In this document: piece after piece, positions 21,668 through 28,293 of the stretch
Layout of the letters: each line of letters begins with the position of its first letter
Position numbering within the stretch: the stretch's first letter is position 1
Assembly: GCA_041483715.1 (NCBI GenBank)
Contig: JBGPGG010000001.1
Coordinates: 8,936 to 72,935, forward strand
Length of the DNA: 64,000 nt
Direction: 5' to 3'
Source of the DNA: Thermoanaerobaculia bacterium
GTDB taxonomy: Bacteria > Acidobacteriota > Thermoanaerobaculia > UBA5066 > Gp7-AA6
Translations under genes and position numbers: made by a program
Notes under the pieces: generated by a model
What the model saw: the letters and a program-made list of their open reading frames with translations, nothing else
The model's database searches: none
Told to the model about the DNA's origin: nothing

Positions 21668-24883
<3,216 letters not shown>

Positions 24884-24884
<1 letters not shown>

Positions 24885-24941: not shown

Positions 24942-25400
24942 TCAGGGCATCGGCCTGAGGTTGACCTCGCGCACGATGTCTGTCCCGACGAACTTCCTCA
25001 TCGCGAGCCTGCTGGAGGCCATATCGCGCTGCTTGTCTTCATCCGTCGTCTTCCAGTGCTTCGCCTGGATCGCCTTGATCTTGTCCGCGTCGCCCTGGTT
25101 GAAGTCCATCGCCTTTCCGAAGCTGGGCTGCAGCGTAGCGATCGCGACGTCCCAGTCTCCCGGATTTGAGGGAACTTTGACAAAGAACTTGAAGTCGAGG
25201 ATGAGCCCCTGCTTCTTCTCGTCAGCGAGGACTAGTACGGCATTGGCGCGGACGTATTTCATGTATTCGTCGAATTTACCCGGCTCCGTACGGTAGGAGC
25301 TCACTGTCCAAACCGGCCCCTCGGTCCAATGGTCCTGGGCAAGCGCGGCTCCGACGGTGAACAAGAGACCCATGGCAGCCATGACGAGAACGCGTTTCAT
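24942..25400 (-). CDS. Hypothetical secreted protein
   Basis: Sec signal MKRVLVMAAMGLLFTVGAALAQ; 152 aa; no family recognised. Intrinsic terminator downstream. Confidence 0.55.
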   Translation of the reverse strand: MKRVLVMAAMGLLFTVGAALAQDHWTEGPVWTVSSYRTEPGKFDEYMKYVRANAVLVLADEKKQGLILDFKFFVKVPSNPGDWDVAIATLQPSFGKAMDFNQGDADKIKAIQAKHWKTTDEDKQRDMASSRLAMRKFVGTDIVREVNLRPMP

Positions 25401-25472: not shown

Positions 25473-25754
25473 CTACTTCTTCTTCGCCGCCTCCGCCTTC
25501 ACCTCGACCGCCGTCGCGGTCATCCGGTACTCGATCGTGACCTTCGAGCCGACCTTGAGGTCGCCAGTGATCTTGGTCGAGGCGTCCCGCGCGATTTCCC
25601 AGCGGTCCTTCCCCTTCTGGACCGCGATCATGGTGTCGCTGACCTCGAGAACCGGACCGGTGACCTGGTACGTCTTCGTCGCCGCCCCCGCCTCCGAGCA
25701 GACGAGGAGCCCGGCCAGAAGCAATCCCGCGATGCCCAACCGTCCTTGACGCAT
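25473..25754 (-). CDS. Hypothetical small secreted protein
   Basis: Signal peptide MRQGRLGIAGLLLAGLLVCSEAGAA; 93 aa; K-rich C-terminus. Confidence 0.5.
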   Translation of the reverse strand: MRQGRLGIAGLLLAGLLVCSEAGAATKTYQVTGPVLEVSDTMIAVQKGKDRWEIARDASTKITGDLKVGSKVTIEYRMTATAVEVKAEAAKKK

Positions 25755-25784: not shown

Positions 25785-26795
25785 TTACCTCCGTGACTGG
25801 TCGATGGAGGCCCGGTCGTACGCTCCCGTCTCGCGGATCGCGATCAGCGGCTCGCCGTCGATCGCGTAGCCGGCCTTGACCCAGGCCTCGAGCCCTCCGG
25901 CGAGCGGTCTCACCAGCTTGAATCCCCTGTCCATCAGCATGCGGGCCACACGGGCCGCTGAGGCCTCGTTGGGTCAAGTGCAGTAGAGGATGATCTCCCG
26001 GCCGCGCGGCAGCTCCTTGAGCTCCGCGTCGAGGTTGTAGACATCGAGGACCGCAGCCCCCCGGATGCGCCGGGGGTCGACGGAGCGCCCCTTGACGGTC
26101 CGCACGTCCAGGACGAGCGGGCTCTGCCCTTCGTCCATCATCCGGCGCAGATCCTCGACCGAGATCCGCGCCATCCGGAGCAACTTGTAGAAACGGCGGC
26201 GCTGCCACCACTTGAAGGCGATGAAGAGGATGAGGCCCGCGCCGAGCAGGGCGAAGGCCGTGCTTCCGATCGACGCGAGGAAGGCCAGGGCCCGGTCGAT
26301 CGCCCGATGAAAGACCATTCCCCCGGCAATGCCCGCCCCCGCCCACAGCAGGGCTCCTCCGCCGTCGTACAGCAGGAACTGCCCGAGGCCCGCCCGCGTG
26401 GCGCCGGCCATGGGCGGAGCCACGGTCGAGAAACCGGGGATGAATTTCGCGACGAGCAGCGAGGGCATTCCCCAGCGTTCGAAGACCGACTCGGTCTGGC
26501 GCACGCAGGAGTCGGGCGAGAGCGAGATCTTGCAGAGGGTCTTCAGGATCCGGTGGCCCTGCGAGCGGCCGAGGGCAAACCAGAGCGAGTCGGCCAGCAG
26601 CGAGGCCGCCACCGCGACGAGGAGAACCTGCCAGGCCGAAAGATCGCCGCCCATCGACAGCGCTCCGGCGACGATGAGCACGGGAATCGCGGGAATCGGC
26701 AGGCCGAGCTGCTCGAGCAGCACGATCCCGAAGATGAGCGGCAGGCCGTAGGCGATGACGTACTGGGTGAGCTGGTCCATGGGAGAACGGATCAT
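25785..26795 (-). CDS. DedA-family membrane protein fused to a C-terminal rhodanese domain; interrupted by an in-frame TGA at 25974-25976 (track ORF 25974..26795 is the part before the TGA)
   Basis: DedA/SNARE-associated TM region (YGLPLIFGIVLLEQLGLPIP...), then rhodanese ...REIILYCT. After the TGA the same frame continues 62 codons (PNEASAARVARMLMDRGFKLVRPLAGGLEAWVKAGYAIDG...) that align with the remainder of single-domain rhodaneses (GlpE ...SSKGAAQYLLQQGY...). Confidence 0.6.
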
Positions 26796-26826: not shown

Positions 26827-27783
26827 ATGACCCTCGAAGCCGCGCGGCGGGTGCTCGAGATCGAGGCGGACTCCGTGCGCCGCCAGATCGACAACCTCGG
26901 TCCGGAATTCCTGGCGGCGATCGAGGCCATCGAAGAGTCCCAGGGCCGGCTCTGCCTGACCGGGATCGGCAAGTCGGGCCTGATCGCGCAGAAGATCGCC
27001 GCCACCCTCGCCTCGACCGGGACGCCCGCCTACTTCCTCCACGCCGGCGAGGCGAGCCACGGCGACCTCGGAATGCTCATGCCAGGCGACGTCGTCCTGG
27101 CGCTGTCCTACTCGGGCGAGACCCCCGAGGTCGTGCGCCTGCTCGAGTTCTCCCGGCAGCGCCGCATCCGGACGATCGCCATGACCGGCGTGTCGGGCTC
27201 CTCGGTGGCGCGGGCGGCCGAGATCGCGATCTCGGTCGCGATCCCCCGCGAGGCCTGTCCCCTGAACCTCGCGCCCACGGCTTCGACGACGGCGATGCTC
27301 GCGATGGGCGACGCTCTGGCGCTCTCGATCTCGGAGCGGCGCGGATTCAAGGCCGAGGACTTCGCCGAGCTCCATCCGGCCGGAAGCCTCGGCCGGCGGT
27401 TTCTGAAGGTCCGGGACCTCATGCGCACCGGGGACCGGTTGCCGAGAGTGGCCTCGGCCGCGCCGATGACCGAGGCCCTCCACGAGATGTCCCGAAAGAT
27501 GATGGGCGTGACCGCCGTCGTCGATTCCGGCGGCCGCCTCGTCGGCGTGATCTCGGACGGCGACCTGCGCCGGCTCCTCGAGAAGGACCCGGCCGATCTC
27601 CAGAAGACGGCGGGCGACTGCGCCCGGCCGAACCCCCGCACGATCAGCGCCGACGAGTTCGCGTCCGCGGCGCTCGAGATGATGCGCTCGAACCGCATCA
27701 CCTCCGTGTTCATCCCCGGCGAGGATGGGCGCCTCGAGGGAGCCCTGCACATGCACGATCTGCTCGCTGCGGGCCTGGCGTAG
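26827..27783 (+). CDS. kdsD: Arabinose-5-phosphate isomerase (KpsF/GutQ/KdsD: SIS + tandem CBS)
   Basis: SIS domain GIGKSGLIAQKIAATLASTGTPAYFLHAGEASHGDLG and a C-terminal CBS pair. Confidence 0.9.
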   Translation: MTLEAARRVLEIEADSVRRQIDNLGPEFLAAIEAIEESQGRLCLTGIGKSGLIAQKIAATLASTGTPAYFLHAGEASHGDLGMLMPGDVVLALSYSGETPEVVRLLEFSRQRRIRTIAMTGVSGSSVARAAEIAISVAIPREACPLNLAPTASTTAMLAMGDALALSISERRGFKAEDFAELHPAGSLGRRFLKVRDLMRTGDRLPRVASAAPMTEALHEMSRKMMGVTAVVDSGGRLVGVISDGDLRRLLEKDPADLQKTAGDCARPNPRTISADEFASAALEMMRSNRITSVFIPGEDGRLEGALHMHDLLAAGLA

Positions 27784-28293
27784 GTGGCGGCCGGCAAGCC
27801 CGCGAGGGCAAAGATCCGCGCCCTCTTCCTCGACGTCGACGGCGTCCTGACCGACGGGCAGATCTACCTCGACGGACGCGGCCACGAGCTCAAGGTCTTC
27901 AACACCAAGGACGGCCATGGCATGCGCAAAGCGGCCGCCGCCGGGATCACGCTCTGCTGGATCTCCGGCCGCTCTTCGCCGGCCACGGCGCGGCGGGCCC
28001 GCGAACTCGGCGTGCGCCTCTGCTACCAGGGCGTCCGGGACAAGCGCGCCCGCCTCGAGTCGGTGCGCCGCAAGCTCGGGCTCTCCCGCGGGCAGACCGC
28101 CTCGATCGGGGACGACGAGCCCGACATCCCGATGTTCGAGGCGACGGGCCTTTCCGCCTGCCCCGCCGACGCCGTTCCCGCCGCCCGCCGCGCCGCCGCG
28201 GTCGTGCTCAAGAGCCCGGGGGGGCACGGGGCGGTCCGGGAGTTCGTCGAGCTGATCCTGAGGACAAACGGGGCCGTGAAACGTAAGACGTAG
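27784..28293 (+). CDS. kdsC: KDO-8-phosphate phosphatase (HAD superfamily, KdsC-type)
   Basis: GTG start directly after the kdsD stop. LFLDVDGVLTDG HAD motif I. 169 aa. Confidence 0.8.
   Translation: MAAGKPARAKIRALFLDVDGVLTDGQIYLDGRGHELKVFNTKDGHGMRKAAAAGITLCWISGRSSPATARRARELGVRLCYQGVRDKRARLESVRRKLGLSRGQTASIGDDEPDIPMFEATGLSACPADAVPAARRAAAVVLKSPGGHGAVREFVELILRTNGAVKRKT

Follow-up and report, generated by a model that had tools for sequence, protein, structure and literature searches.

A conserved in-frame TGA points to a selenocysteine-containing DedA–rhodanese membrane protein in Acidobacteriota

A 64-kb stretch of the genome of a Thermoanaerobaculia bacterium (Acidobacteriota; contig JBGPGG010000001.1, positions 8,936 to 72,935; hereafter the window, whose own numbering is used throughout) carries on its minus strand a gene that joins a DedA membrane domain to a rhodanese domain, the latter interrupted by an in-frame TGA codon. 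The open reading frame (ORF) runs from an ATG at 26795 to the TGA at 25976..25974 and encodes 273 amino acids (aa) ending in ...PRGREIILYCT. Beyond the TGA this frame stays open (PNEASAARVARMLMDRGFKLVRPLAGGLEAWVKAGYAIDG...) for 62 sense codons, up to a TAA at 25787..25785, and an alternative ATG at 26780 (codon 6) is the usual start in homologues. An earlier reading of this DNA, made from the letters alone and referred to here as the sequence-only reading, had described a DedA domain followed by a rhodanese domain cut by the TGA, with 62 further sense codons to the TAA; the ORF, the same-frame extension and the Pfam domains found across the read-through all agree with that description. We consider it very probable that the locus is a single intact gene encoding a membrane selenoprotein, in which UGA codon 274 is read as selenocysteine (Sec) and a DedA domain is combined with a rhodanese of the Cys-x-Sec (CxU) type. 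The features of the gene are as follows.

26795..25785, minus strand: complete predicted selenoprotein gene, 336 aa (331 aa from the ATG at 26780), with Sec codon 274 and the TAA at 25787..25785.
26337..26696, minus strand: DedA/VTT membrane domain, aa 34-153 (Pfam PF09335, 45.7 bits against a cut-off of 33.9).
26505..26534, minus strand: C-x8-C motif, C88-KISLSPDS-C97, in a basic loop between membrane helices (from protein clusters and loci).
26424..26447, minus strand: tip of the second re-entrant helix, KFIPGFST (from the alignment to YghB).
26166..26261, minus strand: last transmembrane helix (aa 179-194) and basic linker KWWQRRRFYKLLRMAR (aa 195-210), read from the sequence.
25875..26162, minus strand: rhodanese-like domain, aa 212-307, spanning the TGA (Pfam PF00581, 40.4 bits against 22.2).
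25974..25982, minus strand: active-site triplet Cys272-Thr273-Sec274, with the TGA at 25976..25974 as the predicted Sec codon.
25938..25960, minus strand: hairpin resembling a selenocysteine insertion sequence (SECIS), from comparative pairing and RNAalifold.

The AlphaFold2 (AF2) model of P0027, an orthologue with cysteine (Cys) in place of Sec that is 70% identical, has a predicted local distance difference test (pLDDT) score of 89.5. Its DedA part is all-helical, with pLDDT mostly above 90, and a long helix (158-204) leads out of the membrane and bridges the DedA and the α/β rhodanese domains. By the positive-inside rule, the basic linker would place the rhodanese domain in the cytoplasm. 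Public gene callers split the gene into the 273-aa product and a 51-aa downstream ORF, the latter a spurious product, and the truncated product of 268-273 aa is named either 'VTT domain-containing protein' or 'DedA' in NCBI and JGI records. When the entire window was screened for in-frame TGA codons flanked on either side by sequence of coding-like composition, four sites came up. The three others are ordinary boundaries between adjacent genes, and the present site is not explained by chance.

The TGA is not peculiar to this genome. Homologues were taken from two sets, the best 120 protein clusters (62-98% identity) from a search of 5.8 billion proteins and the best 80 loci from a scan with one genome per species. 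TGA stands at the identical codon in 29 of these 80 species-level loci, down to 57% protein identity, and the aligned codon in the remaining 51 is TGC or TGT, both encoding Cys; among the 120 closest protein clusters, 116 end in ...YCT. The TGA carriers comprise 27 metagenome-assembled genomes (MAGs) of Acidobacteriota/Thermoanaerobaculia, and two further bins, of which one has the label Methylomirabilota (locus L019) and the other Burkholderiales (L036). Cys forms come mostly from Beta- and Gammaproteobacteria and share the invariant motif Y-C-x-C-P-[NS]-E. Eight independent contigs in public data (JGI, NCBI and several Logan runs) encode an identical 273-aa product, and the TGA is seen alike in short-read and long-read MAGs from separate studies. 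Two loci from long-read MAGs depart from the common gene structure: L065 (10821 onward) has an apparent frameshift, with the C terminus ...AWVRRRVPDRR and an N-terminal part that aligns as a separate segment, while the match in L009 ends at query residue 314 and is followed by 167 open codons after the TGA instead of 62. Both frameshifts are likely to be assembly indels.

Selection on the codons beyond the TGA indicates that they are translated. The ratio of nonsynonymous to synonymous substitution rates (dN/dS) is 0.14 in the 36 codons 3′ of the TGA (0.15 when the hairpin codons are left out) compared with 0.36 in the 36 codons 5′ of it. Synonymous variation starts at the first codons 3′ of the TGA, and translation therefore runs on through it. 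A genome-wide reassignment of TGA was ruled out, since TGA ends 19 of the 32 other confident genes in the window and is their commonest stop; the recoding is thus local and the code itself unchanged. This comparison shows that the UGA is decoded and that a single 336-aa protein is the product; selenocysteine is almost certainly what the conserved codon specifies.

A neighbour-joining tree unites the TGA forms in one acidobacterial clade, near whose base lie the deep branches L029 and L036 (both TGA) and a Cys form from Thermithiobacillus tepidarius (L028). Nested inside the clade is the only acidobacterial Cys form, L020:10814 (CAVULG010000003.1), which has TGC in the same syntenic slot together with the hairpin GCCGCCCGTGTGGCGCGC, and which looks like a recent switch from Sec to Cys. 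The Methylomirabilota-labelled L019 (JBKPCB010000137.1) also nests inside the acidobacterial clade, suggesting mis-binning or a recent transfer. The Burkholderiales locus L036:7315-8300 (DASYSI010000431.1) forms a deep branch and lies among proteobacterial-style genes for a resistance–nodulation–division (RND) efflux pump, a pirin, a YceI protein and a fumarylacetoacetase. The Sec form is accordingly not confined to one phylum, unless the L036 contig is mis-binned.

The position of the TGA within the rhodanese fold is probably that of the catalytic residue. In an ungapped alignment to the Protein Data Bank entry 6mxv (YFYCGGGFRS), the TGA coincides with the catalytic Cys, and the other conserved Cys precedes it by two residues, where a strand ends; an alternative alignment to 6pfz is shifted by two residues and puts Cys272 on the catalytic Cys instead. 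In the AF2 model of P0027, the active-site helix starts directly after the Cys/Sec position. The sequence-only reading had set the TGA two residues after the conserved Cys, in a catalytic C-x-x-G-x-R loop. A conserved Cys is indeed found two residues upstream, but the motif here is C-T-U-P-N-E, and in the ungapped alignment it is the TGA itself that falls on the catalytic Cys. Cationic residues in the catalytic loop of rhodaneses (such as CRxGx[R/T]) bind anionic sulfur donors, and the loop U-P-N-E-A-S lacks any basic residue, unlike the loops of thiosulfate-using rhodaneses. Three full-length homologues from another lineage (P0100, P0114 and P0115) have degenerate active sites, among them IFYYTYSDE, in which both Cys are replaced by Tyr, and LYCSMCLDE, which has an extra residue; judging from these motifs, some such copies may be without catalysis.

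Foldseek matched the domain to single-domain rhodaneses with a probability of 1.00 and a target TM-score (template modelling score) of up to 0.87. By far the best match to the C-terminal domain among NCBIfam models is NF041203 (rhodanese_LYCAU, 'rhodanese-related (seleno)protein'; 79.6 bits, E = 1.5e-22, profile positions 19-124 of 126), the second-best rhodanese model reaching E = 5e-8. NF041203 corresponds to the CxU form of rhodanese selenoproteins in reviews, in line with the earlier remark that rhodaneses are among the bacterial selenoprotein families. It shares with the present domain the fold, a Cys-x-Sec following L-Y (LYCAU, compared with LYCTU at aa 270-274 here) and the existence of Sec/Cys pairs. 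It differs in being a free-standing protein of about 126 aa rather than the C terminus of a 336-aa DedA protein, and since 79.6 bits falls below the family cut-off of 115 bits, the domain is a relative of this family and not a member.

A SECIS-like hairpin lies just downstream of the UGA. Its core stem, GCGGCC paired with GGCC(C)GC, comprises 6 bp (25958..25953 with 25947..25941) under an apical CGUGU loop (25952..25948), with a C at 25943 bulged on the 3′ side. The core begins 15 nucleotides (nt) past the UGA, the hairpin spans 15-33 nt downstream, and an optional lower stem of two pairs begins 13 nt past the UGA. The sequence-only reading had correctly recognized a SECIS-like stem-loop, although in a different register, with a GUGU tetraloop and an internal mismatch where we find a CGUGU loop and a bulge, and 12 nt from the UGA rather than 15 (or 13 with the lower stem). 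The tetraloop register was rejected on finding that it breaks in L036 and in sequences with C at alignment column 21; the CGUGU-loop register with its 3′ bulge is preferred because it is kept in all 30 TGA sequences aligned.

Within this alignment, RNAalifold yields the same hairpin unguided, and 97.4% of the alignment cells pair, compared with 21-45% when the registers are slid by one to three columns. At pair 21:33, 12 sequences have G-C, 10-11 have C-G and three have G-U, and the four sequences with G·G there refold with the bulge moved by one base. Pair 24:30 is C-G throughout except in the distant L036, where it is G-C, a compensatory change by which the hairpin is kept. The CGUGU loop is invariant in all 30 sequences. 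Synonymous sites are frozen as well, with the Arg at +8 encoded by the otherwise rare CGT and the Arg at +11 by CGC in 30 of 30 sequences each, while the codons for Ala at +7 and Val at +9 vary only together. All six core pairs can form in 25 of the 29 TGA loci, compared with only two to four of the six in 50 of the 51 Cys loci; the sole Cys form with the hairpin is L020, whose hairpin is identical to that of Sec forms.

The published model of bacterial SECIS (bSECIS) elements has a loop of 3-9 nt, an upper stem of 4-16 bp and a UGA-to-loop distance of 16-37 nt (PMC13188914, Fig. 2A), together with a G at loop position 1 or 2, which G or U usually follows, and a minimum free energy (MFE) of −7.5 kcal/mol or lower (PMC13188914). 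The hairpin fits this geometry, with a loop of 5 nt, a stem of 6 bp and 21 nt from UGA to loop (alignment columns 4-24), and its second and third loop positions are G and U in 30 of 30 sequences, as the loop rule asks. Like the Escherichia coli fdhF-type SECIS and the bSECIS model, it lies in the coding region after the UGA and combines a small loop carrying a 5′ G-U, a bulged stem nucleotide and a UGA-to-loop distance of 21 nt. It differs from the fdhF type in being short (6 bp, or 8 with the lower stem), and of marginal stability; it has no sequence similarity to characterized SECIS elements, and its binding of SelB is putative. By analogy with bacterial SECIS elements, the hairpin would recruit SelB with Sec-tRNA(Sec), through which UGA codon 274 would be read as selenocysteine.

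Several observations weigh against this interpretation of the hairpin. In the window its energy is −7.5 kcal/mol, exactly at the bSECIS threshold, and in relatives the fixed structure ranges from −1.7 to −9.0 kcal/mol. The 45-nt fold after the UGA has a z-score of −0.02 against shuffled sequences, and the MFE structure of the single sequence adopts a different register. For this reason it is comparison that carries the case for the hairpin, single-sequence folding energy being unremarkable. The comparison is itself qualified in two ways: none of 500 shuffles reached the observed pairing or covariation, a result that overstates significance in that related sequences share ancestry, and the conserved peptide AARVAR also constrains most of the hairpin, leaving few positions free to covary. 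No Rfam family matched, either over the whole window at gathering thresholds or at the site at E ≤ 10, which says little given that bacterial SECIS elements are poorly covered there.

The search for Sec machinery adds to these counterpoints. No selA, selB or selD was found by tblastn with E. coli SelA, SelB and SelD in the 64-kb window or in the 80 related loci (about 600 kb of related sequence searched), no tRNA-Sec was found by ARAGORN in the window or in 30 related loci, and an in-frame TGA screen of the window and the same number of related loci detected no second selenoprotein gene. ARAGORN did call an 87-nt 'tRNA-Phe (gaa)' with an odd anticodon position at 2630-2716 on the minus strand; we regard it as a false positive because the stretch resembles coding DNA and Rfam, even at E ≤ 10, reports no tRNA in it. 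A Sec-decoding trait is assumed for this organism, and the use of Sec in its phylum makes the trait plausible, Acidobacteriota being documented Sec users (PMC12013277, PMC13582414, PMC1794560).

Against these points stand the lines of evidence that bear out the selenocysteine reading proposed from the sequence alone: TGA in 29 genomes, Cys in the orthologues, purifying selection, a covarying hairpin and a nearest curated family of the CxU type. In particular, the comparison that the sequence-only reading had suggested, asking whether orthologues have Cys at the TGA position, finds TGC or TGT in 51 loci.

Among other accounts of the TGA, the one that survives best is that UGA is recoded to an amino acid other than Sec, either as SelB-dependent Cys through a non-canonical tRNA(Cys) or by near-cognate read-through to Trp or Cys. 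Insertion of Cys at Sec-UGA codons with SelB has reportedly been described (by Vargas-Rodriguez et al. in 2018), and it counts for this account that no Sec machinery was found in the window or the related loci searched. Systems of this kind are rare, whereas Acidobacteriota are documented users of Sec. The retention across a whole clade of a costly UGA and its hairpin in place of TGC would be hard to explain, the more so as L020 made the switch to Cys, which implies that the switch is easy, and the closest curated family has genuine Sec and Cys forms. We therefore hold non-Sec recoding to be highly unlikely.

Still less probable is that the TGA is a true stop and that the 273-aa product, a DedA domain with half a rhodanese, pairs with a separate protein of about 51-54 aa as a split domain. 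Gene callers do predict a 51-aa ORF, and a GTG/ATG-initiated ORF exists at 25785..25949. Yet amino-acid conservation begins at the first codon after the TGA (P-N-E-A-S-A-A-R), upstream of the candidate starts, a break here would coincide exactly with the catalytic residue, the Cys homologues all run on without interruption, and neither a ribosome-binding site nor a conserved start was noted, so that we consider a split domain extremely unlikely. The two remaining alternatives, both raised by the sequence-only reading, have next to no standing: a recent TGC/TGT-to-TGA nonsense mutation in a pseudogene whose downstream frame has not yet decayed would suit a TGA one base away from Cys codons and a public annotation that ends there, but it is contradicted by a TGA common to the whole clade (29 species-level genomes and 116 of 120 clusters), a downstream dN/dS of 0.14 with abundant synonymous change and a conserved syntenic position; and a false stop from sequencing or assembly error, for which nothing speaks beyond the prior possibility attached to any single read-derived sequence, is virtually precluded by eight independent contigs with an identical product and by short- and long-read MAGs from different studies that all have TGA.

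With the gene taken as a probable selenoprotein, the question becomes what its membrane domain does. The DedA part was aligned to E. coli YghB, in which four residues are reported as essential in undecaprenyl-phosphate flippases (Glu39, Asp51, Arg130 and Arg136), and a census was taken over 73 loci. The equivalent of Glu39 is kept (Glu28). Asp51 is replaced by Ile37, at a position that is hydrophobic (Ile, Val or Leu) throughout the subfamily in Cys and Sec forms alike; Arg130 corresponds to Lys117, with Lys in 72 of the 73 loci; and Arg136 corresponds to Ser123, with Ser or Ala in the subfamily, so that in the 73 loci Arg occurs at neither the 130 nor the 136 position. The UptA/DedA models of NCBIfam score 31-43 bits against cut-offs of 236-300. 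Like YghB/YqjA and the Bacillus subtilis UptA flippases, the domain has a VTT/DedA fold with two re-entrant helices and the acidic Glu39 equivalent; it differs from them in the replacement of Asp51, Arg130 and Arg136 and in the addition of a C-x8-C loop and a rhodanese domain. The C-x8-C motif is present in 120 of the 120 closest clusters and in at least 73 of the 80 loci, is not found in E. coli YghB and follows the consensus C[RKQ][ILV]S[LI]xPDSC in Cys and Sec forms alike; its loop is predicted to be cytoplasmic. A standard undecaprenyl-phosphate flippase role seems unlikely for this DedA domain because two of the four essential residues (Asp51 and Arg136) are replaced.

The gene is embedded, in opposite orientation, in a cluster for the lipopolysaccharide (LPS) precursor 3-deoxy-D-manno-oct-2-ulosonic acid (Kdo), with pyrG-kdsA to one side, kdsD-kdsC to the other and tatA/B-tatC beyond. 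Two small genes on the same strand as the DedA–rhodanese gene follow it, both as described from the sequence alone. The neighbouring features are these.

22276-24884 and 26827-28293, plus strand: flanking cluster, pyrG-kdsA and kdsD-kdsC, in an arrangement conserved across the clade.
25473..25754, minus strand: small secreted protein of 93 aa, directly downstream (weak, sub-threshold match to Pfam KfrB, E = 0.004).
24942..25400, minus strand: secreted protein of 152 aa, between the 93-aa gene and kdsA (no Pfam match).

The DedA–rhodanese gene and the kds genes are not co-transcribed, because they lie on opposite strands; the constant position beside the Kdo genes makes a link to the envelope possible. 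Of 29 related loci from Acidobacteriota, 23 have the 93-aa secreted protein downstream, 21 of them on the same strand, and it is a conserved neighbour whose link to the DedA–rhodanese gene is putative. The 152-aa protein has no counterpart in the 80 species-level loci and occurs only on contigs with the identical DedA–rhodanese product, and its gene seems to be a very recent insertion.

As for the chemistry of the protein, we propose the following. Sec would take the canonical place of the catalytic Cys, where the active-site helix begins, with a conserved Cys two residues before it. The Cys-x-Sec pair would form a redox-active or chalcogen-carrying centre, either as a selenenylsulfide or with bound sulfane sulfur or selenium, and this centre may exchange with the C-x8-C pair on the cytoplasmic loop of the DedA domain. 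Through such exchange, chalcogen or redox chemistry would be coupled to the ligand or cargo of the DedA domain. To this proposal, that Cys272 and Sec274 carry out redox or chalcogen chemistry with possible exchange with the C-x8-C pair, which draws on motif and position, we give about even odds. Two points count against it. The connection of the rhodanese in DedA fusions has been called 'unclear' (PMC10127716), and the proteobacterial Cys forms have no recurrent neighbour, none being present in more than 11 of 51 loci, a count that is uninformative in that many shadow ORFs passed the ORF filter in this GC-rich DNA.

The proposal has to be set beside a rival one, that the protein is an ordinary COG0586 undecaprenyl-phosphate flippase beside Kdo/LPS genes, with the rhodanese as a regulatory appendage. 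Rhodanese fusions do occur within COG0586 (PMC10127716), the NCBIfam UptA models match weakly, and almost all acidobacterial loci have the gene between kdsA and kdsD-kdsC. However, the Ile and Ser that stand for Asp51 and Arg136 of YghB do so throughout the subfamily, the model scores lie far under their cut-offs, the gene is on the strand opposite to the kds genes, and proteobacterial homologues lack such a neighbourhood. We judge a flippase function of this kind unlikely.

Less probable again, and put forward as a speculation, is that the DedA module, having lost flippase residues and acquired a C-x8-C pair linked to the Cys-x-Sec rhodanese centre, imports or senses sulfur or selenium species (selenite, thiosulfate or polysulfide) for reductive capture at the membrane. 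Ledgham et al. are said to have described in 2005 a genetic link between DedA and selenite, and an import or sensing function, if true, would give this old link a biochemical basis. Such a function would also touch on the published view that prokaryotes have no known dedicated selenium transporter (PMC13188914).

Returning to the Cys-x-Sec proposal, two known groups of proteins are the closest comparisons for the whole architecture. The Cys-containing DedA–rhodanese fusions (PF09335 with PF00581 in COG0586, PMC10127716), which are orthologues or paralogues, share the architecture, the C-x8-C motif, the KF[IV]PG tip and Y-C-x-C-P-[NS]-E, and differ in having TGC or TGT for TGA and, in 50 of 51 cases, in lacking the hairpin. 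What is new here is the Sec form, the DedA–rhodanese architecture being already known in its Cys form. TsoB (NF045694, rhodanese form 5 in PMC13188914) is likewise a rhodanese selenoprotein fused to a Cys-bearing membrane module, a likeness that suggests, by analogy, a membrane-associated redox or chalcogen relay. It is unlike the present protein in its DsbD-like partner and in its UxxxxU motif with two Sec residues as opposed to a single CxU, and the protein has no match to NF045694 at E ≤ 0.01. Literature searches, including the 2022 and 2026 reviews and the deep-Sep paper, turned up no DedA/VTT selenoprotein and no selenoprotein from Thermoanaerobaculia, and the protein would be, if our reading is true, the first selenoprotein of the DedA/VTT superfamily.

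On this reading, virtually every public record examined annotates the gene wrongly, and a selenoprotein of a whole clade of soil Acidobacteriota has been missed by catalogues, by NCBIfam rules and in selenoproteome counts. Our understanding of selenocysteine decoding is unchanged, as new selenoprotein families are found regularly. The implications concern instead the function of the fusion. That Sec is conserved at the catalytic position speaks for genuine redox or chalcogen-transfer chemistry in the rhodanese domain, and the second conserved Cys pair on the membrane domain and the loss of two flippase residues argue in the same direction. DedA–rhodanese fusions are widespread, and these features give concrete targets for mutation and for assays.

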